Source of the DNA: Alphaproteobacteria bacterium
Lineage (GTDB): Bacteria; Pseudomonadota; Alphaproteobacteria; Rs-D84
Length of the DNA stretch: 64,000 nucleotides
NCBI GenBank assembly: GCA_017962125.1
Contig: JAGCVZ010000011.1
Location: 115,764-179,763, forward strand
Direction: 5' to 3'
How positions within the stretch are numbered: the first letter of the stretch is position 1; each line of letters begins with the position of its first letter. The notes under the pieces were generated by a model, which was not told where the DNA came from, searched no databases, and worked only from the letters and a program-made list of their open reading frames with translations. Below are positions 3,306 to 60,015 of this stretch, one piece after another. A program made the position numbers and the translations under genes.

Positions 3306-3371
3306 TCCTTTTGCATTTCGGTGCGGGCGCACTATATAATTCACATAGAAACAAAAAGAAAGGAGAACCTT

Positions 3372-3854
3372 ATGAAGAAAAAACCACTTGTTGCATATTT
3401 TAGTGCGACTGAAACGACACGCGGCCTGGCCGAGGACTTGGCGGCGGCGATTGATGCAGATTTGTTTGAAATAGTGCCGACGGAAAAATATACCGCAGAT
3501 GACTTGGATTGGACTAATAAATTAAGTCGCACAACGACAGAAATGAACAACCGCGCATGCCGCCCAAAAATCGCCAAGGAAATCCCAGACCTTTCAAAAT
3601 ATGAAACAATTTTTGTTGGGTTTCCGGTCTGGTGGTATCGCGAACCGTCAATCATCGACACATTTATGGAATCCTATGATTTCGCGGGCAAGACAATCGT
3701 TCCGTTCGCCACATCCGGGGGCAGTCCGATTGGCGACGCCGGCAAAAATATGCAGAAACTTGCGCCCGACGCACGCGTTGAACGCGGCGCCCGCCTTGAC
3801 ACCGGTCTTTCACCGGATGCCCTGCGCGAATGGGCAAAAAAGTGGATAGTGTAA
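3372..3854 (+). CDS. Flavodoxin
   Basis: Start MKKKPLVAYFSATETTRGLAEDLA preceded by AAAGGAGAACC ribosome-binding site; flavodoxin FMN-binding signatures (TxT, GFPVWW, ATSGGS). Track start 3321 lacks a ribosome-binding site. Confidence 0.7.
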   Translation: MKKKPLVAYFSATETTRGLAEDLAAAIDADLFEIVPTEKYTADDLDWTNKLSRTTTEMNNRACRPKIAKEIPDLSKYETIFVGFPVWWYREPSIIDTFMESYDFAGKTIVPFATSGGSPIGDAGKNMQKLAPDARVERGARLDTGLSPDALREWAKKWIV

Positions 3855-3877
3855 GTGGGTAGTGATTAGTGTAAGTA

Positions 3878-3906
3878 AAATGGCGCGGTATACCGCGCCG
3901 TTTTAA
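3878..3906 (+). terminator. Intrinsic terminator (ggcgcgg-tata-ccgcgcc + T-run) after flavodoxin
   Basis: GC-rich 7-bp stem then GTTTT; preceded by TAGTG/TAAGTG hexamer repeats. Confidence 0.6.
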
Positions 3907-3992
3907 GTATGAATACATTTTTTCAAATTGCTTGACATATTACTTTTTTCGTATTACACTAAAACTATCCGAATGAAATAAAAAGGTAAAAG

Positions 3993-4376
3993 ATGAAAAA
4001 ACAAAATAAACTTTATGCGCTGATATTGATGCTATTACTCACCGGATGTAAAAACAAACAAAATGGGACAACAGATTACAACTGTGAACTGTCTTACCCA
4101 AAAGGTGTGGACACCGTCTATGTTATACGAACACTGGATCAGGGCGGAGCCTCCTATAATGCTCCAAGAAAATATGTGGCGGCCACAAATGCATACGGAA
4201 ACGATTATTACATGAAATTTTATTTAAATAATAAAGGAAACAATGCAGCCCGCGAACGTGACCACATTCTTTCCTTTATATCCCCTGGGGATACACTTGT
4301 TATGGATGGTAATCAGCTTATAAAAAATCTGACGTTTGAACATGCGAAAGCTAGATACTGCACGAAAAGCAAATAA
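3993..4376 (+). CDS. Hypothetical lipoprotein
   Basis: Signal peptide with LLTGC lipobox; AAAAGG ribosome-binding site. Confidence 0.5.
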   Translation: MKKQNKLYALILMLLLTGCKNKQNGTTDYNCELSYPKGVDTVYVIRTLDQGGASYNAPRKYVAATNAYGNDYYMKFYLNNKGNNAARERDHILSFISPGDTLVMDGNQLIKNLTFEHAKARYCTKSK

Positions 4377-4397
4377 ATAAAAAAATATAATCAATCA

Positions 4398-4417
4398 ACG
4401 GGCGCATTTGCGCCCGC
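4398..4417. terminator. GC-rich hairpin (gggcgc-attt-gcgccc) between convergent genes
   Basis: Perfect palindrome; flanking T/A tracts are imperfect; same GGGCGC..GCGCCC family as the hairpins at 42039 and 46648. Confidence 0.4.
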
Positions 4418-4434
4418 ACTTACACTAACACTAA

Positions 4435-5652
4435 CTACTCATACCTCAAACTATCAATCGGATTTAGTTTTGCGGCTTTTATCGCAGGCATAACACCAGA
4501 TACCAATCCGACAAACACCGCGACAGAAATTGAAACGACAACCGGCCAAATACTGAACGGCACGTTATAGCCCAATACAAACCGCCCTATTCCCTGCGAC
4601 AAACCAACCCCCAGTATCAAGCCAAACATAGACCCAATAAATGAAATCATTATTGATTCTGACAAAAATTGCGTAATGATTGTTCCCTCTTGTGCGCCAA
4701 TCGCCTTGCGAATACCAATTTCACGCGTACGTTCCGCAACCGACACCAGCATCATATTCATAATTCCAATCGATCCGACCAACAACGATACCGCCGCAAT
4801 CGCAACCAGCAACAGAGTCAAATAACTGCTGACCGTTTCCATAGTTTCCATAACTTGCTTCATATCGGTTATTTGAAAATCGTCCGCCGCACCATCCTTC
4901 AATTTATGCCGATTGCGCAAGACCGATGTTATCTGATCGGTCGCGATATTATTGTCGGAATCTTGATAGAGTTTAAGTGAAATCATCTGCACCGAATTTG
5001 GGAATCGTGAACCCGCAAGACGTTTCTTTAATGTTGTAATCGGAATTATTACCATATCGTCTTGGGAACTCATGCCAGAACTTCCTTTGGCCTTGGTAAC
5101 ACCAATCACCGTCATTGGGGTATTCCGCACGCGAATAATTTCACCCACCGGATTTTTAGGCATGCCCAATTCTTCAGCCGTTTCCGGTCCAATCACTGCA
5201 TACGTAGATGCCCCTCGCACAGCCGACATTTCAAAAAACACACCATATTCCATTTCTATATTCTGCACCGTTGCATATCCAGGATATACACCGACCATAG
5301 ATGTTGACCAATTTTTATTTCCATAGACAACCTGGGCACTGCTGTTTTCAACTGGACTAATTGCTGCTACATCGGGCAATTGCGCAATAAAATCAACATC
5401 ATCCAGTGTCAATGTCATACGATTACCAGAACGTACCCCTGCACTTTGCGCCGCACCTGCACGAATCATAATCGTATTTGTACCAAGCGAAGAAAACTGA
5501 TCAGTAATCGATTGTTGCACTGTTTCACCAACAGCAACCATTATCACAACCGCCATAATTCCAATTACTATCCCAAGTACCGTCAAAAAAGACCGCATTT
5601 TATTTCCGGAAATCGACAACCAAGATTCATGTGCAATATCATAAAACGTCAT
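4435..5652 (-). CDS. ABC transporter permease, MacB/FtsX-type
   Basis: N-terminal transmembrane helix, large periplasmic domain, C-terminal FtsX-like 3-helix bundle (GIRKAIGAQEGTI...); 4-nt overlap with the upstream ATPase gene. Confidence 0.85.
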   Translation of the reverse strand: MTFYDIAHESWLSISGNKMRSFLTVLGIVIGIMAVVIMVAVGETVQQSITDQFSSLGTNTIMIRAGAAQSAGVRSGNRMTLTLDDVDFIAQLPDVAAISPVENSSAQVVYGNKNWSTSMVGVYPGYATVQNIEMEYGVFFEMSAVRGASTYAVIGPETAEELGMPKNPVGEIIRVRNTPMTVIGVTKAKGSSGMSSQDDMVIIPITTLKKRLAGSRFPNSVQMISLKLYQDSDNNIATDQITSVLRNRHKLKDGAADDFQITDMKQVMETMETVSSYLTLLLVAIAAVSLLVGSIGIMNMMLVSVAERTREIGIRKAIGAQEGTIITQFLSESIMISFIGSMFGLILGVGLSQGIGRFVLGYNVPFSIWPVVVSISVAVFVGLVSGVMPAIKAAKLNPIDSLRYE

Positions 5653-6406: not shown

Positions 6407-7603
6407 TTATCTTGGCCCACCGCCAGGTACACCACCTGGTCCCCCCATCATTCCACCACCCCGATTATTATTCCGACTGGTGTTTGATTTTTTCTGTTGC
6501 CCCATATATCCAATAATAACTTTGTCGCCTTCTTGAATTTCATCAGAGATTACTTGCGTTTCAGTTGCCGTTATCAAACCTTTGGTATATGGCACAAGAA
6601 CAACACGAGAACCACGTTTAATTGCTAAATGATTTGCCGGTGTAACATTATCATCAGCCGTTTCAACTATACCATCAAAACTGCGCAACAACAGTGCAGA
6701 ATTTTGAACCTTCCACGTATCATGCGCCGCATTTACAATAATCGTCACAAACGCCGTCATACCCGGCATAAGGCGCAAATCCGAATTATCCACATCAATT
6801 ACCACAGTATAAACCACAACGTTTGATGTGGTTGTTGGCGAAAGACGAACTTGACGCACAAAACCCTCAAAAGTCTGTCCGGAATACGCATCAACAGTAA
6901 AAGTTACTTTTTGCCCCTGCTTTATCACCCCGATATCAGCTTCGGACACAGAAGTTTCAATCTGCATTTTTGTTAAATCTTCGGCAATTTCAAATAAATC
7001 CGGCGTTTGGAAAGATGCCGCAACTGTTTGACCTTTATCAACCTTGCGCGAAATAACCGTTCCATCAACAGGCGAAACAATAGTCGCGTACCCAAGGTTT
7101 GTGACCGCTCTATCATACTGCGACTGCATTCGCTTTACAGATTGCAACGCCTGTTCATATGTTGCCTGAGATTGTTCCATTTCTGCGCGTGCAATATAAC
7201 CAGAATCAAACAAAGATTTATCGCGTTCATAATTACTTTTTGCTAAATTTAACTGTGATTTAGCGGATTCAAGCGATGCTTCGGCTTCGTCCACAGATGC
7301 CTTTAACACAGACGGTTCAATTTCTAAAAGTCTATCCCCTTTTTTCACAGTAGAATTATAATCTACAAAAATATCTGAAATTGTCCCGGACACCTGCGAC
7401 CCTACATTTACAGTATTTACAGGTTGAATTTCACCAGTTGCGGTTACTGTTTGAGACAAATTTCCACGCATAATATCCACCGTTACGAAGTCTTTCTTTG
7501 CAACCTTGGACGCCGTCCCAACAAAGGCGTAAATCATAACAATTACAGCGGCCCCAGCAATACACCACCATTTGTGCCGAATAAACCATCTTTTTTTATT
7601 CAT
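6407..7603 (-). CDS. Periplasmic adaptor subunit (HlyD/MacA family) with Gly-rich C-terminal tail
   Basis: N-terminal transmembrane anchor, coiled-coil hairpin, beta-barrel region; C-terminus GGGMMGGPGGVPGGGPR. Confidence 0.8.
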   Translation of the reverse strand: MNKKRWFIRHKWWCIAGAAVIVMIYAFVGTASKVAKKDFVTVDIMRGNLSQTVTATGEIQPVNTVNVGSQVSGTISDIFVDYNSTVKKGDRLLEIEPSVLKASVDEAEASLESAKSQLNLAKSNYERDKSLFDSGYIARAEMEQSQATYEQALQSVKRMQSQYDRAVTNLGYATIVSPVDGTVISRKVDKGQTVAASFQTPDLFEIAEDLTKMQIETSVSEADIGVIKQGQKVTFTVDAYSGQTFEGFVRQVRLSPTTTSNVVVYTVVIDVDNSDLRLMPGMTAFVTIIVNAAHDTWKVQNSALLLRSFDGIVETADDNVTPANHLAIKRGSRVVLVPYTKGLITATETQVISDEIQEGDKVIIGYMGQQKKSNTSRNNNRGGGMMGGPGGVPGGGPR

Positions 7604-9054: not shown

Positions 9055-9303
9055 ATGAAACGTGAAAAGATGCAAAAACTTGGCTGGGCGCTTGTTGCCT
9101 TTGGGGCGATAGCTGTTTGCATTAGTATTTTGCCAGACGGCAATCGTTTAGATGAAAGCATATCAGGCCCCAAACCACCTGTGTTTTCAAAGGAAGAATT
9201 CAAATCCAGGGGGGCAACTAACACTATAACATTTGGTGGGGCAATGGCAATGACCGCCGGCCTGTGGTTTCTTGTCCGCGCCACAAAAAAGCGCTCAAGA
9301 TAA
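9055..9303 (+). CDS. Small two-helix membrane protein, paralog 1 of 4
   Basis: 82 aa; basic N-terminus, two hydrophobic helices, basic C-tail; AAAAGGGTAAAACATG ribosome-binding site; three tandem paralogs follow. Confidence 0.55.
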   Translation: MKREKMQKLGWALVAFGAIAVCISILPDGNRLDESISGPKPPVFSKEEFKSRGATNTITFGGAMAMTAGLWFLVRATKKRSR

Positions 9304-12999: not shown

Positions 13000-13212
13000 T
13001 TAAAATCCTTTTTTGGAAAATCCTGTGATACAGAACGTACCACAACCTACTTCGACGCGTATTATTACACATTTTTAATAAAAAGTCAAGCAGAAGTGCA
13101 AGTGGGTGGCGGTCAACGAAACAGGTTCGCCACACTAACACTAACCACTTTCTCTTGACATTACCCCAAATTCTTGCTCCAATAAAACTACATAAAACAA
13201 AAAGGAAATAAA

Positions 13213-14067: not shown

Positions 14068-14222
14068 TCAAAAATTAGATTATCCTTAGAATATATGTAA
14101 AAAATTATACAAGAATTGACAGTTCTACCAACATCACTGGCGAAACCACGCCACACAAAGTAACACTGATTACTTACACCTTTTGTGGCATGACACAGAC
14201 CGCGATCACAACGGAACAGGCA

Positions 14223-17200
14223 CTAAAACCTGTACATCCCCGAAAGGTGGACTTTATGCATTTGGATATTAGAATTATATTGATAACGATAATCCAAACC
14301 GATATGCAACCCATTTACAGCCAAGAATTCTGCACCTGCACCTGCATGCGCCCAAAGAGGATCAACGCCAATGTCATAATCACGCCATGGTTCAACAACC
14401 GCAAACTTGTATTTCATTGTATCAGGCGATGAAATCAAATCGTATTCAATACCAACCGTCGCATATGGGCGAATTTGGAACCATGATGATGGATAAATAC
14501 GTTTTTGGGCAGTTAAAGAATATCCCGGTGTCAAAATCACGCGTCCATCAAAATCAAGGTTCATATAATCAGTACCACCAACTTTTTCGGTCATATCAAA
14601 ACCAAAATTATATCCCGCACGCAGATATAGATTTCCAATAATATACTGATTCAACCAATCGTGTATCAAACCTGTTTCGCCAACAATCCCATAAGAAAAC
14701 GCATCGCCTTCTATTCTATCAACCCACGTCTGGTCACGCTTGACATCAATAAAGTTCACATCAAACATAGCATCACCATACCAACGCGCCTTGTTATTTA
14801 AAGTCTTGATGAAATACGCACCTGCACCAACATTAAGATTGCGAACATCCGTATCAACATGACCAATCGCATTAACCGTACCATATCCTAAATCTATAAC
14901 ATCATTGTCTTCACCTTTGGTATGATTTACATGCCCCATCCAACCCAAAATCAGAGTATCACTTGATTGCCAATCGTATCCAAAGTTAAACCCGAAACGT
15001 GATCCGTGCGCATGATTGTCAACCAAATCATCCCAAAAATAACCATAATCAGCAATGAACCACAATTTGTTAACACGACGATTACGATTCCAAATAGCTT
15101 CATCAATAAATCTGTCGGACAAATCTTTAAATAATGTATGAGTATTTAATTCCAAAGCATCTGCAATCTGATTGGCCTCACGCAATTGGAACACACGACT
15201 AAATGCACGAATAACATTCGGATTGCCACGTTCAGTATAATCTTTCATACGCGGATACAGTTCTTCATTCACACGATAAAGCGGTGTATCATCAAACAAC
15301 AACCTTGCAACACCCAAAGGAGAATCGTATGAAAAACCATGTTGCAAAAGTTCATATTCAATCAAATCGTCTAATGCGCCCGCGGATTGATATTCGCCAG
15401 TGGTATAATACGGTGCACTTGCGACCACAGGTTGTAATTTAAACATCTTGTCATCATTGTTAAACCGATCGTCAAACACAACATATAAACTTTCCCTTGT
15501 TCCATCACCATTCATATCATAGGAAATCAAACGTATCGGCAATTCAGTACCGGCACCATTATATTCACCAGTCGCCGCCAAATAATCTGTGCAAATAGTT
15601 CCGTCTGCATTACAGAAATTTATACTTAACCCAGAAATTCTTGTCGCAAGCTCTTCAATACCATCGTCGGCATGCAACAACCAAATTGCAGAATTACCTG
15701 TAACAGTATTGCGTAAATTTATACCTATCTGTGTATCTGACAATCCCGAAACATCGGAAGATACCGTATCCGATACATTTGTTATCAATTTCCCAGAAAC
15801 AGAAATTAACGGCTCTGCCCCAAGTACATTATTCGTTATCGTTCCAACCATGTACTCATCATCAAACGTCGCCGTTGCCCAATAAGTATACGCATCCCCA
15901 GAATTTGCAAAAGCAAGCAAACGACCGGCATTATCAAAAGTATAATCACCCCCAACCGTCATATGGGCAAGACCAACAATATCCGTTCCGCCAATTATAT
16001 CACCACCAACGGTCACATTGATACCATCGGCCAACCCAGGATTATAAAGTGCAACATCATCACCACCAAGATTGTCCCCAACATTGACCGCCCCGGCATT
16101 CAGTGCAACCCGGCCCCCATCAACAGATACAACATCATGCGCAACATTTATTGTTTGCGCAAATAATCCAACACCATTTTCAGAACCACTAGCCGATATT
16201 TCACCACCAACATTTATATCAAAATTATTTGCATTTATATCCGTAAAGCCGTTCACAACGTTCATTCCACCAAGCGATGCACCAACCAGCCCAACCGTCA
16301 AATCTTGTGCCACAGAAACCACGCCTGAATTAATGGTATTCGTACCCGAAACATTTAAACGGCCATTTTCAGAAACCACAATACCATCACCGCCCACATT
16401 AATTGTTGGCGCGGACAAATTCATCGTTCCGGCACTTGCAACAATTCCCACCGCATTGATAGCAGTCGAGGCAGACAAATCCATCACCGCATTTGAGTTA
16501 CTAAACCCATTTCGAATCGTATTTGCATCTATTGCGCCATTTGTCACACTCAATGCAAAAGAATTCAGATTATTATCAAAAAACTCATCAATTCTTTCAC
16601 CAAGCGACAACGTTCCAGTAGTCAAACTAAATGAATTAGTTGTAAACATACTCGATAAATCAAAACCATGTGCAAGTATAGTAGCACCCGAAATTTCGCC
16701 GATGAAATCGCCCTTGTTAATAAAAGAAGTCCCGTCACCGCCGATAATCCGTAAAGATGTTGCATTAATACGCATCGCTCCCGAATTCGATTCGTTTGTT
16801 ATGTCACCCCCTACGACAATTTGCCCACCAGTCAAAGACATCACCCCTGATGACTTGTTTTCAATATTGCCTTCTACCATAAATTGACCAGTTCCACTAA
16901 GCAACACTGTCACACCCTTGGAATCCAAAGCCTGGAAAACACCATCAACATTCAGGGAATTTCCTTCTATGATTGCGCTACCCACTCCGGATGCAACAAA
17001 TTGCCCCAAAGATACAGCATCACCATATAAATTTAAACCACCGGTTGCCTCTATAACATTAGCGGTAAAATTATATAAACTTCCGCCCGCGCCACCAATG
17101 GTCAGATTTTTTTCCGCATCGACATCCAAGCCCCCACCAACAGAAATTCCGCCATTCGTAAATATAGAATAATTGGTATCAATAGCCGATTCGGCATAAA

Positions 17201-17435
17201 TACCGCCCGGCGCAACCGGCGTTTCTGCATCATACCCGACATAGATATCCCCAGCGGTCGTCAACGTTCCACCAACACTTATTCCCGCACCCTTTTGAAT
17301 AATATATGATTCATCAGTCAGGTTCAACGCCCCAGAAATCGGTGTAATTTCCCCTGGTGTTCCAGGAATAACAGTGTCCGATAACGCACAAAACGGTGTC
17401 AAGCAATATAAAAAAGGAAATAATTTTTTTATCAT
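14223..17435 (-). CDS. Autotransporter (type Va) surface protein with beta-helical passenger and C-terminal beta-barrel (Sca-like)
   Basis: 1070 aa; signal peptide; Gly/Thr/Asn-rich parallel-beta-helix-type repeats; C-terminal ~280 aa with alternating hydrophobic beta strands ending ...HLSGMYRF (terminal aromatic). Confidence 0.75.
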   Translation of the reverse strand: MIKKLFPFLYCLTPFCALSDTVIPGTPGEITPISGALNLTDESYIIQKGAGISVGGTLTTAGDIYVGYDAETPVAPGGIYAESAIDTNYSIFTNGGISVGGGLDVDAEKNLTIGGAGGSLYNFTANVIEATGGLNLYGDAVSLGQFVASGVGSAIIEGNSLNVDGVFQALDSKGVTVLLSGTGQFMVEGNIENKSSGVMSLTGGQIVVGGDITNESNSGAMRINATSLRIIGGDGTSFINKGDFIGEISGATILAHGFDLSSMFTTNSFSLTTGTLSLGERIDEFFDNNLNSFALSVTNGAIDANTIRNGFSNSNAVMDLSASTAINAVGIVASAGTMNLSAPTINVGGDGIVVSENGRLNVSGTNTINSGVVSVAQDLTVGLVGASLGGMNVVNGFTDINANNFDINVGGEISASGSENGVGLFAQTINVAHDVVSVDGGRVALNAGAVNVGDNLGGDDVALYNPGLADGINVTVGGDIIGGTDIVGLAHMTVGGDYTFDNAGRLLAFANSGDAYTYWATATFDDEYMVGTITNNVLGAEPLISVSGKLITNVSDTVSSDVSGLSDTQIGINLRNTVTGNSAIWLLHADDGIEELATRISGLSINFCNADGTICTDYLAATGEYNGAGTELPIRLISYDMNGDGTRESLYVVFDDRFNNDDKMFKLQPVVASAPYYTTGEYQSAGALDDLIEYELLQHGFSYDSPLGVARLLFDDTPLYRVNEELYPRMKDYTERGNPNVIRAFSRVFQLREANQIADALELNTHTLFKDLSDRFIDEAIWNRNRRVNKLWFIADYGYFWDDLVDNHAHGSRFGFNFGYDWQSSDTLILGWMGHVNHTKGEDNDVIDLGYGTVNAIGHVDTDVRNLNVGAGAYFIKTLNNKARWYGDAMFDVNFIDVKRDQTWVDRIEGDAFSYGIVGETGLIHDWLNQYIIGNLYLRAGYNFGFDMTEKVGGTDYMNLDFDGRVILTPGYSLTAQKRIYPSSWFQIRPYATVGIEYDLISSPDTMKYKFAVVEPWRDYDIGVDPLWAHAGAGAEFLAVNGLHIGLDYRYQYNSNIQMHKVHLSGMYRF

Positions 17436-42020: not shown

Positions 42021-42035
42021 TTAAATATAGTAAAA

Positions 42036-42066
42036 AAAATGGGCGCACACTTGCGCCCATTTTTAA
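42036..42066. terminator. Bidirectional terminator (atgggcgc-acactt-gcgcccat flanked by A8 and T5)
   Basis: Sits between convergent genes. Confidence 0.75.
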
Positions 42067-45959: not shown

Positions 45960-46619
45960 ATGAAAAATGCACATGATTTATTGATAGAATTGTATGCACT
46001 TAAACTAGCAAAAAACGATTTATTATGGGCTGTACGCACAATGTCGCGCACAACCGATAATTATAGCAAAATAAATATTGATTATTCAGACATAGATTCC
46101 TTTAAACAAACAGCGACATCTTTCATAACCCCCGTTTTTCTAGGTTTGAATAACCCAAAGCACAAACTCAACGATCGTTATCAACTACAACTTCTTAAAA
46201 CGTTACAAAACGCAAGGGCAACGAACATTATAGATAAAAGCAACAACATATTGGACACCAAACAATTCACAAACAATGTTCTGAAAAAGTGTGTATTGCC
46301 CGCATACATTGCTTGTATGAACAACACTTCTGAACTTGATACTAATTGGCTTTTTTATTCTTTAACTGGTGTAAATTTTGCACGTATAATCCAAGAACAA
46401 ACAAAATCTGTTTTTGACTGCAAAGCTTACGCGCACTATGATCCCGCGTATAAAAACGGTGTTGTATACAATCCCCATATTTTACATAACGCAATCCAAA
46501 AATGTGGTTATTCTGGTTTTGCAACAATGAACGAAATCGAAGCCGCCGTTGGCACAGATGGCATGGATTTATTCAGAACAATGGTACCACGCATGTTCGA
46601 ACGTGTAAAAAAATCATAA
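45960..46619 (+). CDS. Hypothetical protein (219 aa)
   Basis: AAGAGGTAAGACATG ribosome-binding site; no recognisable motif. Confidence 0.45.
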   Translation: MKNAHDLLIELYALKLAKNDLLWAVRTMSRTTDNYSKINIDYSDIDSFKQTATSFITPVFLGLNNPKHKLNDRYQLQLLKTLQNARATNIIDKSNNILDTKQFTNNVLKKCVLPAYIACMNNTSELDTNWLFYSLTGVNFARIIQEQTKSVFDCKAYAHYDPAYKNGVVYNPHILHNAIQKCGYSGFATMNEIEAAVGTDGMDLFRTMVPRMFERVKKS

Positions 46620-46640: not shown

Positions 46641-46668
46641 AAAAAAACGGGCGCGATTGCGCCCGTTT
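46641..46668 (-). terminator. Intrinsic terminator (acgggcgc-gatt-gcgcccgt + T7 on minus strand)
   Basis: Follows the tsf stop; preceded on the mRNA by the GGTTAGTGTAAGTAGATAGTG motif. Confidence 0.75.
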
Positions 46669-46696
46669 CACTATCTACTTACACTAACCACCGGCA

Positions 46697-47566
46697 CTAT
46701 TTCAACATCTTTGCGACTTCGTCCGCCAGGTTGTCTTCGCGTTTTTCGATTCCTTCGCCAAGGACGAAGTATGAAAAGCCCGCAAGTTTACCACCGGCTT
46801 CGTCCAACACTTGTTTTACGGTCTTGGACGGTTCCATAACAAACGGCTGTTCTTCCAAAACGGATTCGGCATAGTATTTTTTCATACGGCCTTCAACCAT
46901 CTTTTCAACGATATTTTCCGGTTTGCCCGCCGTCGCGCCAGATTCGATAAACACTTTCTTTTCGCGTTCAACCGCCGCCGGGTCAACATCGGCAACTGTC
47001 ATAAATTCCGGTTTATTCGCAGCAATATGCATCGCAATTTTCGGACCGATTTCGGCAATTTTATCGCTGTCACCGTTTATCGCAACCGCAACACCAATTT
47101 GCCCCATACCCGGAACAAGTGCATTGTGAATATAACTAAATATATGGTCACCAGAAACCTTTGCAATACGACGCAGGTTCATATTTTCGCCAATCGTCGC
47201 GATTGTCGCCGCGATATCATCATGCACCGCGTTCAGTGTTGCATCAAAATCGCCCGACAATTCCAAGGCTTTGTTTGCAACATCCGCAACCAACTTTTGG
47301 AACTTTTCATTTTTCGCAACAAAGTCAGTTTCCGCATTCAATTCGACGACACAACCCATATTGTCGCACTTTACAACGGTCACCAACCCCGAAGCCGCCA
47401 CACGACCGGCCTTGGATGCCGCCTTGACAATACCCTTTTGACGCAGCCAATCTGCCGCCGCATCAATATCGCCATTATTTTCAATCAACGCCTTTTTGCA
47501 ATCAAGCATACCAGCAGACGTTTTTTCACGTAATTGCTGAATAAGTTTCGCTGTAACTTCCGCCAT
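46697..47566 (-). CDS. tsf: Elongation factor Ts
   Basis: UBA-like N-domain (LREKTSAGMLDCKKAL) and EF-Ts dimerisation core. Confidence 0.95.
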   Translation of the reverse strand: MAEVTAKLIQQLREKTSAGMLDCKKALIENNGDIDAAADWLRQKGIVKAASKAGRVAASGLVTVVKCDNMGCVVELNAETDFVAKNEKFQKLVADVANKALELSGDFDATLNAVHDDIAATIATIGENMNLRRIAKVSGDHIFSYIHNALVPGMGQIGVAVAINGDSDKIAEIGPKIAMHIAANKPEFMTVADVDPAAVEREKKVFIESGATAGKPENIVEKMVEGRMKKYYAESVLEEQPFVMEPSKTVKQVLDEAGGKLAGFSYFVLGEGIEKREDNLADEVAKMLK

Positions 47567-47635: not shown

Positions 47636-48496
47636 TTATTTATCGGCCTTTTCGGCTTTGTCCGCCAATTTGCTGCGACGAACTTCGCGCGCTTCGGATG
47701 TTTTGGATTTTTGTTTCATTTCTTTGGCTTTCATTTCATCTTCCAACGCATCGTTCGCATCGTCGGCCATGGATGCCTCCACCTTTTTACCAGCAGCACC
47801 GCCAAGGCGCTTTTCAATACCAGACAAAATCGCGTCCACGCACAAATCACAATACAGTTGAATCGCGCGCGTAGCATCATCATTTCCCGGCACCGGATAG
47901 TCAACTATTTCCGGATTTGCGTTCGTATCGCAGATTGCGATTGTAGGAATATCAAGATTTTTTGCTTCACGTACCGCATTCATTTCACGTGGCACATCAA
48001 TAACAATCATAACCTGAGGCACACCGTGCATATCCAAAATACCACCAAACACATTGCGCAGTTTTGTAACTTCCTTGGTCATAACACCGACTTCTTTCTT
48101 GGTCAGACCTAATTTATCAGCGTTTTCAATATCCGATTCCATCTTTTTCAAACGACGAATTGATTGCGACACAGTTGTCCAATTAGTCAGCATACCGCCC
48201 AACCAACGATTATTTACATAGAATTGACCAGTGCGTTCCGCGGCATCTTTGACAATATCTTTGGCTTGGTGCTTGGTTGCAACGAACAAAACCTTACCCC
48301 CAGCGGCGGTAATCGCCTCCAACGCCACCAATGCACGATGCAACAGCGGTGCAGTTTTATTCAAATTGATAATATGAATTTTATCTTTGACCCCATAAAC
48401 ATACGGTGTCATAAGTGGATTCCAACGACGGGTGTGGTGTCCAAAGTGAACGCCGGCTTCCATCAATTGTTGCATAGAAAATTTTGGCAATGCCAT
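47636..48496 (-). CDS. rpsB: 30S ribosomal protein S2
   Basis: Canonical S2 (VHFGHHTRRWNP) with Lys/Ala/Asp-rich C-tail; rpsB-tsf operon order. Confidence 0.95.
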   Translation of the reverse strand: MALPKFSMQQLMEAGVHFGHHTRRWNPLMTPYVYGVKDKIHIINLNKTAPLLHRALVALEAITAAGGKVLFVATKHQAKDIVKDAAERTGQFYVNNRWLGGMLTNWTTVSQSIRRLKKMESDIENADKLGLTKKEVGVMTKEVTKLRNVFGGILDMHGVPQVMIVIDVPREMNAVREAKNLDIPTIAICDTNANPEIVDYPVPGNDDATRAIQLYCDLCVDAILSGIEKRLGGAAGKKVEASMADDANDALEDEMKAKEMKQKSKTSEAREVRRSKLADKAEKADK

Positions 48497-48655
48497 GATT
48501 TATCCTTTTGTTTCTGTTAATTCCTCGCCTTGGTGGGAAATACAAACCGGAAAGCCCGGACAGAAACCCCACACATGGCTGTGTTCTTCGCACCAAACGG
48601 CACGTGCCCGCATGATATGACAAAAAAATCAAAAAAGCAAGTATTTTTTATCCCG

Positions 48656-49771
48656 CTACTGATTCTGGGGTAAGTAAACATTATTGCCTACTTCTGGCCC
48701 GGCAATAAATGTTCCCGTGCCGGTTTTATTAAAAAATTGATTTGATACCGTGTCGTACATGCCAATCTCTCTATCAGAATTACGGCGTGCCGGCACAAGA
48801 TTCATTATAACCGCATTATTCCGTGTAATTTTAAAACCACTGCTTTGGACAATCGATGTTCCGGTTACCGCACATCGGCCAAATAGACACAGCTTTGTAC
48901 TGCCGGGGCTCGTATTAAGAACAGGAGATAAAATCTTCACGCCATTCACAATCAATGCTTGCTTTTTTAGTATCAATACTCCTTCGTATTGTGTTGCATC
49001 ACTCTGAGTAGTCAATGAACTTGAAGAAAGGAATCTTGCGTACCAGCTGTTCGTGGTGCTATAGGTTTCCGCCCATGTATTGGAACCATAAAGCAACATC
49101 TTGTCGCCGGCCTTGGAAATATTCGCCGGCAACATTTTATAATGTAATTCAAACACGTCATCTTGGTCGATATTATGTTGAGTGTCTAATATAACATTAC
49201 CATCGGTTTCAATGTATTCAAGTTGCGTATATTCTGGTGGCAATTGGTTGGCAACGCTTATCGTCCATAACCAACAATTACCGGTTGCGGAGTCATTACT
49301 GGCACAGATAAATTCATTATCAAGCCCGTTCTGTAATGCCGCATTAAATGTTCCGGCATCAACAAGGTTATTTTGTTGTGTGGCATATGTGCCACTGTCT
49401 TGATAAATACCTTTTTCGCCCAATTCACCCAGCGCAGATGTGTATGTTGCAACATAATCCGCATGTTTGTTCGCACCAAGTGTATCTTGGGTGGCATTTA
49501 AGCCATCGTTCACCGCACTAACCGTTGGTAATGCGGTGTCGTTTGTGTTATTACCTAAATCTGATTTTACTTCGCGTGGCGCGATTCCCCCGGCGGTATT
49601 GGTAAAAGTTGCAACTTGGGTTCCTGATTGCGCACCGAATATATCTTGTTTTTCGGAAAGTTCATCATTTACATACGTTAGTGATGTTACTGTTTGCCTG
49701 TCGGCAATATCATCGGCGAATGCGAAACCAATAAATGCTGCGAACAACCCGAACATCATGAACTTTCTCAT
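48656..49771 (-). CDS. Secreted fibrous or adhesin-like hypothetical protein (371 aa)
   Basis: Signal peptide; Thr/Asn/Gly/Ala-rich; shares short motifs (xVxxVNDGL / AVYDY type) with the 58374 and 60016 proteins. Confidence 0.55.
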   Translation of the reverse strand: MRKFMMFGLFAAFIGFAFADDIADRQTVTSLTYVNDELSEKQDIFGAQSGTQVATFTNTAGGIAPREVKSDLGNNTNDTALPTVSAVNDGLNATQDTLGANKHADYVATYTSALGELGEKGIYQDSGTYATQQNNLVDAGTFNAALQNGLDNEFICASNDSATGNCWLWTISVANQLPPEYTQLEYIETDGNVILDTQHNIDQDDVFELHYKMLPANISKAGDKMLLYGSNTWAETYSTTNSWYARFLSSSSLTTQSDATQYEGVLILKKQALIVNGVKILSPVLNTSPGSTKLCLFGRCAVTGTSIVQSSGFKITRNNAVIMNLVPARRNSDREIGMYDTVSNQFFNKTGTGTFIAGPEVGNNVYLPQNQ

Positions 49772-50150
49772 GTTCCTCTCCCTTGTGTTACACTAACCAC
49801 TAAATAAAAACACCACCGAAAAACTTCTAGTGGTTGGAGGTTAACGACAATTTGACGAAATTGTGTGTTTATTTTGATGGGCCTTTTACGCCCGCCATTA
49901 TTCACATCCCCCTCACCCTCTTTTGGGTTGGAGCCTTGCCAAAAACATATTTGGCTTCGTCAAAGAGGTCGTTACACCCCATCGGCGGAACACCCACCGA
50001 TAAAAACAGTCTACTAAAATACAGAAATAAAAAACAAGGAAAAAAATAATCGACCATTAACAGTTTGTTATAAATTTTCTAAATAAAAAACTTGTGTTTT
50101 GATATTTATATTCTAATATAAGAACAAACTTAGGATTGGGGAAAACATCA

Positions 50151-58373: not shown

Positions 58374-59684
58374 TTACGCTCCCGTAACAGCCGCCATGAC
58401 CGTCCATTCAAGCTTTACAGCACCTGCCACAGAATCCCATGAAGTAACCAAAGCACAATGAACTCCTGTATTGTTTGCTGATCCGCATGCCTCTGGCATC
58501 GGTGGCAATACGTTACCCCCTAGTAACTGTCTAACCGCACTTGCCTTTACCAATTTTGCTCCATTATCGCTATCCAGCAAATCTTCCTTGGAAGAAACCA
58601 TTTGTGTTGATTTCAGACCAACGGTTGCATCAGTTCCATCACTTACAACGGCAATATATGTATCACCACTTAACTGTTGCCATCCATCAGCATACTCATA
58701 GCCACCTTGACCATCACTGGTTGCTGTTCTGTAACCAATCATAACTTGGTTCGCATCAGTTGTTTCTATTTTTGGCTGATACGTTCCACCCGCATATGCC
58801 GTCACAAAATCATAAACGTTTTTAACCGTCGGAACTTTTTTGTCTCCATCTGTTCCATTCGCATTTGCCGCAGTAATAGTAGAAGACCCGCCAAGTCCTT
58901 CTGGTAAAACCATAGAATAAACCGCACTTCCCGTGGTCAGTTTATTCGAACCATATGCAACATCGCCGATTCCTGTCCCAATCATATCACTTGCAAGGTT
59001 CACAGTATATACACCACTGTTTGCATTCATCGTAACATAGTTGTTATTTGAACCCGCGGAATTGGATGCCGCTTGCAAAGTTGTCCATGTTGGATTTGCA
59101 TTTGAATTGGCTTTGTACCCAACCTGAACACTATTAGTGCCCGCAACAGTTGAAACCTTGGGCTGGGCATAATCATAAACCGCACCCGCCGTAACAAGTT
59201 TTGCACTAGGCGCCAAATTTTCACCTTCACCAATTGTTAAATCATCAGTTATACCTGCTGCACCAGTAGCCAAATTACCAGAATTTAATAAAACCATTTT
59301 TCCATCAGGTGTCAAACCTTCTCCATCAATGTCCTCTACCCGAAGATATGTTCCGTCTGCCTGGACATTTGTTGCCACAGCATTAACATCATCCAATGCC
59401 TGTTTTACGGCTTTACCAGTAACTAACACGCCATCACCATAAGTAAGATCAACTGAATCTTTGGTGTTCCCAATATAAGTATTTTCTGTTTCGCCTCGAT
59501 TCTGACCTTGGGTGATAACAGTACCCGGAGCCCCATTAAATTTACCATCAACATACCACTTTGATGTAACGGTTACCTCATCCAATGCTCGTTGCTCTGC
59601 CGATGGTGCCGTAGCCGCCATAGCGTTTGCTGACAATACAGCCGCAGCAAAGCCTATACTTAATTTTTTGATTTTTGTTTTCAT
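58374..59684 (-). CDS. Secreted fibrous hypothetical protein (436 aa)
   Basis: Signal peptide; Gly/Thr/Ala/Asn-rich; motifs KLVTAGAVYDY and VPTVKNVYDFV. Confidence 0.55.
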   Translation of the reverse strand: MKTKIKKLSIGFAAAVLSANAMAATAPSAEQRALDEVTVTSKWYVDGKFNGAPGTVITQGQNRGETENTYIGNTKDSVDLTYGDGVLVTGKAVKQALDDVNAVATNVQADGTYLRVEDIDGEGLTPDGKMVLLNSGNLATGAAGITDDLTIGEGENLAPSAKLVTAGAVYDYAQPKVSTVAGTNSVQVGYKANSNANPTWTTLQAASNSAGSNNNYVTMNANSGVYTVNLASDMIGTGIGDVAYGSNKLTTGSAVYSMVLPEGLGGSSTITAANANGTDGDKKVPTVKNVYDFVTAYAGGTYQPKIETTDANQVMIGYRTATSDGQGGYEYADGWQQLSGDTYIAVVSDGTDATVGLKSTQMVSSKEDLLDSDNGAKLVKASAVRQLLGGNVLPPMPEACGSANNTGVHCALVTSWDSVAGAVKLEWTVMAAVTGA

Positions 59685-60015
59685 TTTTTTTCCTTTTTTT
59701 TGTTATAAACGTACTACCTCCGACATAATGTATGATGCCAAACCCACCATGCAAACACAGCACCCAAGAGATGTTATCCCTTTTTACTATCCAAACTCAG
59801 CCACTCCACGCTAAAAAGCATGTACCAAGCGACAGCGCCCACACCAGGTAACCCACAGTAAACCAGTTGGATAGACAAAACACACCTACCCTACACGACA
59901 CCGTGCATCACCACGCCAGAGACACCTCTCGACAACTGTAAAAAAATTGATTTCCCCTCTATTTTTTCTTAGTCTTTCATCCTTTTTGTTCGTTTGTTGT
60001 TGTGTTGTGTAAACC

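Follow-up and report, generated by a model that had tools for sequence, protein, structure and literature searches.

What are the short runs of TAGTG, TTAGTG and TAAGTG units found at the ends of several genes in a 64,000-nucleotide stretch of an alphaproteobacterial genome (contig JAGCVZ010000011.1 of assembly GCA_017962125.1, positions 115,764 to 179,763; hereafter 'the window')? Inspection of the sequence had led earlier to the prediction of hexamer runs joined to GGGCGC..GCGCCC hairpins, and these had been ascribed to a small repetitive extragenic element or a conserved terminator cassette, possibly a binding site for an RNA-binding protein or a repeat of the REP or MITE kind (repetitive extragenic palindrome; miniature inverted-repeat transposable element). 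In our judgement, and with some reserve, the runs are probably the arm repeat of a lineage-specific, dispersed, intergenic palindromic element. The window would contain cargo-less or single-arm copies of it fused to terminators, resembling the intervening sequences (IVSs) of ribosomal RNA (rRNA), the short tandemly repeated repetitive (STRR) sequences and REPs. A longer form of the element carries a gene of the PF05635 family between its arms, and PF05635 genes in many phyla are accompanied by analogous inverted heptamer arms.

The expected frequency of the motif was derived from 100 dinucleotide shuffles of the window, in which array coordinates were set by exact matching. The window has 7 occurrences of TAGTGTWAGT (0.08 expected); as many were seen in none of the 100 shuffles. 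Lone WAGTG pentamers are not in excess (57 and 130, compared to 99 and 182 expected), so that clustering is what is special. The predicted copies were found at their sites. Three arrays overlap the stop codons of a flavodoxin gene (open reading frame (ORF) 3321-3854, Flavodoxin_4 in Pfam), a permease gene (ORF 4435-5652, MacB_PCD plus FtsX permease in Pfam) and tsf, and GC-rich hairpins follow them. As had been proposed, the stop is embedded in the array: TAA at 3852-3854 for the flavodoxin gene, TAG at 4435-4437 for the permease gene, and TAG-TG for tsf. The association with the GGGCGC palindrome held only in part. GGGCGC-N3-8-GCGCCC occurs three times in the 64 kb where none is expected, which suggests that this hairpin module is itself a repeated unit, but it is not an obligatory companion: the hairpin of array 1 is different and another, at 42041, has no array, so the coupling is loose. 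The hairpin without an array is a bidirectional terminator, AAAAATGGGCGC-AAGTGT-GCGCCCATTTTTTTT (42032-42064), and belongs, like those of copies 2 and 4, to the GGGCGC..GCGCCC type.

When 185,579 genomes (GTDB, one per species) were scanned with AGTGGTTAGTGTWAGTG, at least 118 stretches matched. Among the matches listed, 102 of these at least 118 belong to Ca. Enterousia or to uncultured (Alpha)proteobacteria, as metagenome-assembled genomes (MAGs) from the guts of ruminants, horses, rabbits and other hosts; the remaining 16 are mostly singletons from other phyla. Ca. Enterousia belongs to the order Rs-D84, and the Tsf protein of the window is encoded identically on metagenome contigs. Ca. Enterousia genomes are reduced, at about 0.75-1.0 Mb and about 90% coding density (PMC12306168). 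Similar arrays stand at gene ends in more than 40 related genomes, and orthologous proteins among lineage genomes have a median identity of 80%; the motif therefore spans many species. On these matches, the element appears to mark, and to be confined to, Ca. Enterousia-type gut Alphaproteobacteria with reduced genomes. As a separate observation, gene-end arrays of TAGTG or GTTAGTG were also seen in unrelated phyla, at three of the related loci that were fetched (labelled here with L-numbers): L090, about 5131-5230 (a Saccharibacteria MAG, in the order stop TAG, array, terminator, reverse arm), L174, about 7400-7460 (Planctomycetota ZRK32), and L340 (IMG/VR, GC 50%); either horizontal spread or convergence may account for them.

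The anatomy of the arrays was worked out on a lineage sample of 102 loci plus the window (828 kb), with an array defined as at least three WAGTG units, which gave 168 arrays. Successive units are spaced by 6 nt in 242 cases and by 7 nt in 305, and the two spacings alternate strongly (295 mixed neighbour pairs, compared to 83 of the same kind). The true period is thus 13 nt (GGTTAGTGTTAGT), and the plain hexamer repeat first described has to be given up. Arrays are short, with three units in 49, four in 45, five in 63, and more in only 11. In a full element, a 5' arm of about 3-5 GT-rich units alternating 7/6 (GGTTAGTG TTAGT) ends typically in GTTAGTA(G/A) before the hairpin, whose palindrome is extended by the flanks. 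The centre is either a GC-rich intrinsic terminator, often bidirectional, or an AT-rich palindrome, CTGGAAT-N20-ATTCCAG. The central modules that recur across genomes are CGGGCGC-type terminators, this AT-rich palindrome, TGTGCGGCATTTGCCGCACA and, in some genomes, a terminator that precedes the array. For 73% of arrays, a perfect stem (at least 5 bp) follows within 45 nt, and a mirrored (CACTAAC)n arm lies within 160 nt of 43%; the GT arm lies 5' of the hairpin in a ratio of 37:4. For two of the two-armed elements, hairpins with some 50 bp are predicted, with folding energies of -53 and -57 kcal/mol and z scores of -9.6 and -11.4. Stops are present in all three sense frames in 68 of the 74 arrays with at least five units (92%), compared to 42 of 74 (57%) when units were resampled.

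At gathering thresholds, an Rfam search of the window and 14 related loci returned only tRNA and rRNA, and no family for the arrays or for the recurring hairpin modules. One further module, TTCCAGA-N-AGCAAAGTTCCCCTC-loop-GAGGGG(TG), which has no Rfam family, follows many elements (L138, L146, L167 at about 2290-2330, L185, L191 and others). Two over-long arrays were also encountered, one of about 20 TAGTG-type units (L098, 5270-5440) and one, ahead of a PF05635 ORF, in which AGGCTCC is present in 29 copies (L323, 1288-1493); these suggest occasional runaway expansion or assembly artefacts.

The position of the arrays relative to genes is far from uniform. Only 6 of 168 lie wholly inside a called ORF. 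An array is present in 40% of the spacers between convergent genes, in 11% of those between tandem genes and in 8% of divergent ones, and array density is 2.48 per kb in convergent compared to 0.35 per kb in divergent spacers, a 7-fold difference. For 85 of the 168, the array starts within -12 to +30 nt of a stop on the same strand. A motif search for enrichment and for association with gene ends had been proposed as a check, and both bore out the view of a small repetitive extragenic element next to gene ends and terminator-like hairpins. Among the 85 stop-linked arrays, 27 have the TAG of the gene as their first unit and 5 have the TAA of TAAGTG. Stops at array-linked genes are TAG in 58 cases, TAA in 27 and TGA in 4, against 100, 413 and 81 for other genes. 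Even stops located 2-12 nt ahead of the first unit are mostly TAG (20 of 29), which indicates that the stop is usually part of the repeat. Several proteins have array-encoded C-termini, of the form ...SG*, ...GSG* or ...SVSG*. One-armed arrays in tandem spacers have a weak strand bias, 16 being sense and 9 antisense, which is more in keeping with a DNA palindrome than with a signal confined to sense RNA. In the only rRNA operon sampled (L191), the array is upstream of the operon and not in the 23S gene; all copies otherwise lie between protein-coding genes.

If the array were a conserved terminator cassette, as the original prediction allowed, it should be kept by close relatives. This proved not to be the case. 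No array of at least three units was found in 20 metagenome loci encoding a Tsf 80-94% identical to that of the window (146 kb); none of the 20 has the array expected 3' of tsf, a vestige being left at L201 only, and the tsf copy is thus species-specific. The hairpin partner also varies, and most terminators of the window have no array. Conversely, groEL and ssb end in TAA and a plain terminator in the window, and in TAG and an array at L118, L135, L136 and L185. In place of about 16 nt of L126 and L177, stop included, L187 has a two-armed element of about 105 nt, so that the C-terminus now reads ...KISG*. An insertion of the element can overwrite the last codons of a gene and supply a TAG stop. 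Within one genome, central modules from separate loci can be identical (L107, 1964 and 7713) or agree at 33 of 34 positions (L173, 733 and 5746), and they are diverged between genomes. Such gain, copying and loss at orthologous sites argue for a dispersed repeat that turns over, not for a conserved signal.

The unit itself also changes. In relatives, other heptamer 'dialects' take the same positions (CAGAGTT, AGAGCAT, ATTTACG, GTTAGTT, AAAGAGC, TGAGACA), and several of them coexist within one genome. In two relatives with about 70% Tsf identity, the density of period-7 arrays rises to 38 per 100 kb; other Alphaproteobacteria, sampled over 543 kb, have 0.37 per 100 kb. The dialects stand next to terminators, often as inverted arms (AGAGCAT/ATGCTCT, ATTTACG/CGTAAAT, GTTAGTT/AACTAAC; also CAGAGTT, AAAGAGC, ACTGATG and TGAGACA), and some of their units are free of stops. 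Examples are found at L205 (2260-2290), L210 (10918-10951), L216 (3344-3452, 5741-5876 and 16309-16497), L217 (6000-6089), L147 (5602-5879) and L194 (1261-1326).

Genes enclosed by inverted arrays 0.25-3.5 kb apart were then collected. Most turned out to be ordinary genes between two separate elements. The sole recurrent cargo was a 123-aa ORF between rbfA and lepA (L103, 5262-5672; L113, 1066-1490), which belongs to PF05635, the 23S rRNA intervening-sequence protein (Pfam, E 1.6e-34). Homologues 61-93% identical occupy the rbfA-lepA interval of many metagenome contigs (including L281-L299), always between TAGTGGTTAGTG... and ...CTAACCACTAA. At L181, ORF and arms are both absent from this interval. 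A PF05635 ORF 38% identical was found between arms of the same 13-nt repeat on a Prevotellaceae-binned contig with no close orthologues in the lineage (L164, 3143-3592). Dispersed arrays and a cassette of the same unit occur side by side in at least two genomes (L103 with L161 and L176; L113 with L138, L155 and L159). No PF05635 homologue was found in the 64-kb window, the only part of this genome that was searched.

The look-ups were extended to relatives of one PF05635 query, all at least 35% identical to it. In 10 of 10 further loci (L300-L320), heptamer arrays of about 4-5 copies lie beside the ORF, each locus with its own unit and most of them inverted on both sides; at every locus tabulated below except L320, both arms are clear. 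An independent sample from IMG/VR (L321-L346, 35-53% identity) gave arrays of at least three copies, with a period of 7-8, beside the ORF in 20 of 26 loci, 11 of them with both arms, and some of these loci have cargo-less two-armed arrays of the same dialect nearby. The 23S IVS of Coxiella, a selfish element 428 nt long, contains an S23p (PF05635) ORF; its terminal inverted repeats pair as a stem of about 28 bp that RNase III cuts, and an old hypothesis holds that the IVS ORF once served mobility (PMC4990558). PF05635 also resembles Avd of diversity-generating retroelements (PMC10053308). In open-access text, we found no paper linking PF05635 to heptamer arrays or to STRR, and a look for the unit sequences themselves in the literature yielded nothing but mutated-telomere control oligonucleotides.

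How such an element would act can be proposed at two levels. As RNA, the arm would end translation in every frame just ahead of the hairpin, and the hairpin with its U-run would terminate transcription or block 3' exonucleases. The arms of two-armed copies would pair into a stem of about 30-50 bp, of the kind that RNase III cuts in rRNA intervening sequences. As DNA, the element would spread by some copy mechanism and be tolerated only where promoters and ORFs stay intact.

Several points weigh against this reading. Neither a transposase nor a REP-associated tyrosine transposase (RAYT) was found in the lineage sample of about 830 kb, where a phmmer search of the six-frame translation of the contig loci with a single query, E. 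coli RayT, which is a weak test, returned only a spurious antisense-frame hit (E = 0.008). No target-site duplication was seen when the L187 insertion was compared with L126 and L177, and gain and loss could come from recombination or slippage instead. Stops in all three frames are in excess and the number of units is capped at five, both of which hint at selection and neither of which a purely selfish element predicts; likewise, the persistence of some 70 copies, by extrapolation, in a genome of about 0.9 Mb suggests some utility. In a strict terminator test (perfect GC-rich stem plus T-run), only 28 of 165 hairpins pass. Most window copies are one-armed and only copy 3 has a two-armed stem, a weak one, so the part of the mechanism that involves a long stem and RNase III does not apply to the one-armed copies. 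Finally, ORFs were called by a crude longest-ORF rule, and the lineage loci other than the window were picked by the motif itself, so that absolute densities are biased and only ratios and the window are unbiased. On the other side, a purely functional reading is weakened by the lack of conservation at orthologous sites, by antisense copies and copies in divergent spacers, and by stop-free dialects.

A place for an RNA-binding protein at the arrays, part of the original prediction, is possible, and it has a broader counterpart. The arrays may be putative sites for a trans-acting oligomer that reads one unit of about 7 nt per subunit, as RNA or DNA; the candidate is the pentameric four-helix-bundle protein of PF05635, whose gene lies between identical arrays, and the dispersed arrays would be its regulon or propagation sites, comparable to REPs with RAYT or to the spaced UAG triplets that TRAP and HutP bind. 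We consider this unlikely; it is compatible with a palindromic element and would supply its partner. The flanking of PF05635 ORFs by about 4-5 heptamers across phyla, with taxon-specific units, speaks for it, as do the cap at five units and the genomes that hold arrays and cassette of one unit. The PDB homologues 2GSC and 2RLD have five chains each, and S23p of Xanthomonas is described as a homopentamer (PMC4990558). Against it, the protein of L164 has its unit in common with the Enterousia protein at an identity of only 38%, whereas proteins 44-50% identical have other units, so there is no simple covariation between protein and unit. Several dialects occur in one genome, and S23p is probably not synthesised in Coxiella (PMC4990558). 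That a pentameric PF05635 protein reads about five tandem units is speculative. A wider proposal, which we hold as a tentative and doubtful one, would make heptamer arms and the PF05635 pentamer a single unrecognised cross-phylum system: the pentamer would read about five units, arm-PF05635-arm would be the autonomous form, and cargo-less armed hairpins (the TAGTG arrays of the window and possibly STRR) would be its derivatives or binding sites.

It is quite improbable that the array is instead a selected, non-mobile 'safety' signal, in which stops in all frames between ORF and terminator free read-through or frameshifted ribosomes before they melt the hairpin. The three-frame stops of the longer arrays, the 32 of 85 genes whose own stop is the first unit and the strong over-use of TAG at array-linked genes would all be accounted for. 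This proposal leaves unexplained, however, the conserved G-T-G after each stop, and it does not fit arrays that come after terminators, in divergent spacers or as antisense arms, the dialects of relatives without stops (such as CAGAGTT and TGTGCTC), or the lack of conservation of arrays at orthologous gene ends. Moreover, duplication of a 13-nt unit explains the 7/6 alternation equally well.

Another genome-wide DNA signal (a DNA uptake sequence, Chi, or a signal like the FtsK-orienting polar sequences) that merely gathers in terminators is scarcely credible. DNA uptake sequences do sit as inverted pairs in terminators, and copy 2 contains AAGTGCGG, which we take to resemble the core of the Haemophilus uptake signal sequence. 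Such signals, however, are single short words spread throughout coding DNA, while here we deal with capped tandem arrays nearly absent from ORFs, with single pentamers that are not in excess and with several unrelated dialects that coexist. Known consensus sequences were also considered (DNA uptake sequence, Chi, anti-Shine-Dalgarno pairing, RNase E, elemental pause) and set aside as partial fits, the units standing in arrays outside genes. That the arrays arose by chance, or from the composition of a GT-skewed strand, might have been suggested by the strong strand skew of the window, but is refuted by the shuffles and by the recurrence of arrays at gene ends of related genomes.

A dispersed palindromic element thus stands as the favoured answer, and it was not expected in such a host: a repeat at about one copy per 13 kb that rewrites C-termini and stops is surprising in a reduced genome with about 90% coding density. 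In practice, the element will mislead gene callers, terminator predictors and assemblers. The link between PF05635 and arrays ties together rRNA intervening sequences, the common proteins annotated as 'four helix bundle', S23p or Avd-like, and STRR-type repeats. If true, the arm-PF05635 system would give the '23S rRNA IVS protein' family a function and explain STRR-type repeats.

Table 1. Copies of the element in the window, and arms at further PF05635 loci (X, the PF05635 ORF)
Feature	Position or gene order	Strand	Composition and remarks
Array 1	3840-3877	+	AAGTG GATAGTG TAAGTG GGTAGTG ATTAGTG TAAGTA = AAGTGGATAGTGTAAGTGGGTAGTGATTAGTGTAAGTA
Hairpin of array 1	3882-3899	+	GGCGCGG-TATA-CCGCGCC then T4; terminator-like on both strands; -21.8 kcal/mol, z -3.3
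Array 2	4417-4440	-	GAGTAG TTAGTG TTAGTG TAAGTG = GAGTAGTTAGTGTTAGTGTAAGTG
Hairpin of array 2	4399-4416		CGGGCGC-AAAT-GCGCCCG; convergent spacer between ORF 3993-4376 (+) and permease gene (-)
TTGATTGATTA	4388-4398	-	Predicted pairing, G-U-containing, with start of array 2; -20.4 kcal/mol, z -4.6; weak
Copy 3, left arm	13133-13151	-	AAAGTG GTTAGTG TTAGTG; orthologous decayed copy in L136
Copy 3, central hairpin	13107-13132	-	TGGCG..CGCCA
Copy 3, right arm	13093-13106	-	CCCACTTGCACTTC; + strand reads GAAGTGCAAGTGGG; abuts -35 box of rho promoter
Decayed copy	14138-14180	-	Array GGTGTAAGTAATCAGTGTTACTTTGTG plus hairpin TGGCGTGGTTTCGCCA; 3' of ORF 14223-17435 (stop TAG-TG)
Array 4	46669-46699	-	TAGTG CCGGTG GTTAGTG TAAGTA GATAGTG; first unit is the tsf stop (TAG-TG)
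tsf terminator	46641-46668	-	AAACGGGCGC-AATC-GCGCCCGTTT plus T7; 11 pairs, 7 GC; common to convergent ORF 45960-46619
Partial array 5	49787-49804	-	TTTAGTG GTTAGTG TAAC; directly upstream of ribosome binding site of ORF 48656-49771
PF05635 locus, Paludibacter-like	sdhA-X-sdhB		Arms GTTACGA / TCGTAAC
PF05635 locus, Planctomycetota	ilvB-X-ilvC		Arms GGTCAGG / CCTGACC
PF05635 locus, L310	hemE-X-hemH		Arms GCTTGAG / CTCAAGC
PF05635 loci, L312-L315	trxB-X-thiI		Arms CGTGAAA / TTTCACN
PF05635 loci, L316 and L317	tgt-X		Arms GTGATTAGTGTTA
PF05635 locus, L318	iscS-X-nifU		Arms GATTAGT / CACTAAT
PF05635 locus, L320 (GC 65%)			Downstream arm CCTGAAG-type; a partial upstream arm some 100 nt away from ORF

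The window copies listed in Table 1 are joined to terminator hairpins and have either a single arm or two arms in a decayed state. As intrinsic terminators they are unequal: the tsf copy has all the features, the flavodoxin copy only T4, and the permease copy no T-run on its own side. The short segment TTGATTGATTA may, judging from its predicted pairing, be a degenerate right arm of array 2. Copy 3 (13093-13151) had been placed in the 5' leader of rho, which has to be corrected, as the whole two-armed element lies between the divergent genes rho and ssb, on the upstream side of the promoter predicted for rho (TTGACT-17-AATAAT, 13089-13061) and between the promoters of the two genes. The orthologous locus L136 keeps this promoter, whereas copy 3 has drifted there. 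The decayed copy at 14138-14180 had escaped the earlier description; its orthologous site in L136 is an intact TAG-array-CGGGCGC terminator. Two-armed palindromes and PF05635 cassettes had no place in that description either. Array 5 is preceded by a weak hairpin and T-run (49803-49833), and the same order, terminator then array, recurs in other genomes. A motif match at 9217 is probably due to chance.

Some observations made along the way concern other features. In the window, a 159-nt GC-rich leader that looks structured lies upstream of rpsB (47636-48496) on the minus strand, at 48497-48655; it had no Rfam hit at the gathering threshold and may be an S2 autoregulatory leader. Also on the minus strand, a G/T-rich spacer of 331 nt (59685-60015), unusually long for a compact genome, lies upstream of ORF 58374-59684, with no Rfam match and no ORF of at least 60 aa. 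Two candidates were discarded. A 113-aa protein always trailed by arrays was suspected of being a transposase and proved to be YraN/UPF0102. The possibility that phages copy a host signal rested on four array-rich 'viral' contigs of IMG/VR; it was dropped when L044 proved to be host DNA (YraN, DnaB) near portal and terminase remnants. On this Enterousia-type contig, a T7-like portal gene (Head-tail_con) and a truncated terminase lie beside dnaB and yraN (3349-5454), probably as the remnant of a prophage in a reduced genome.

How does the element compare with known systems? REPs and their composites (bacterial interspersed mosaic elements and REPINs) of Enterobacteria and Pseudomonas are extragenic palindromes of 3' untranslated regions and convergent spacers, mobilised by RAYT, whose doublets form long hairpins; they are credited with roles in termination, in the stabilisation of mRNA 3' ends or in transcript processing. 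The present element shares with them its many copies, its extragenic location and presence in convergent spacers, mosaics of modules, presence or absence between relatives and, in two-armed copies, long hairpins. It differs in that its arms are tandem 6/7-nt units around a central hairpin of variable sequence, whereas a REP unit is a single imperfect palindrome of 20-40 nt with a 5' GTAG, of which the only counterpart here is a frequent GTTAGTA(G) before the hairpin. Moreover, the one gene encountered between arms is PF05635 rather than a Y1 transposase. MITEs such as the Correia elements of Neisseria are short and cargo-less, with inverted ends, lie near gene ends, and are transcribed into hairpins that RNase III processes. 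Short, cargo-less derivatives with inverted ends that lie near gene ends and can alter gene termini are found here too, with no target-site duplication (L187 compared to L126 and L177), a variable number of arm units and no transposase between arms. A 'REP/MITE-like' label therefore stands for the distribution, the presence or absence between relatives and the near-identical copies within one genome, and not for the REP unit or the defining traits of a MITE.

The sites of TRAP and HutP consist of several (G/U)AG triplets 2-4 nt apart, to which a ring-shaped oligomer binds and controls a terminator. The geometry of the arrays fits, with UAG every 6-7 nt on the 5' side of a hairpin; antisense arms are common here. 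The STRR sequences of cyanobacteria are tandem intergenic units of about 7 bp that come in several families, have hairpin potential and have been proposed to act in transcript stability or translational coupling (PMC2670836). Unit length (here 6 nt in 242 cases, 7 nt in 305), tandem arrangement, intergenic dispersal, hairpins and the existence of several families are alike. The arrays described here differ by being capped at about five units, by their 7/6 alternation, by serving as arms of a palindrome that has a terminator hairpin at its centre, and by often providing the stop of the upstream gene; moreover, the hosts are gut Alphaproteobacteria with reduced genomes and not heterocyst-forming cyanobacteria. 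The last comparison is with the 23S IVSs of Coxiella and Leptospira. These lie in helix 25 or 45 of the 23S rRNA, whereas the cassettes found here lie between protein genes of operons; the terminal repeats are here tandem heptamers, and the window copies have no ORF and are mostly one-armed. The long-stem terminal inverted repeats of an IVS are nevertheless present in the two-armed copies, and the rbfA-PF05635-lepA cassette has the same layout as an IVS, with TAGTG arrays as its terminal repeats.

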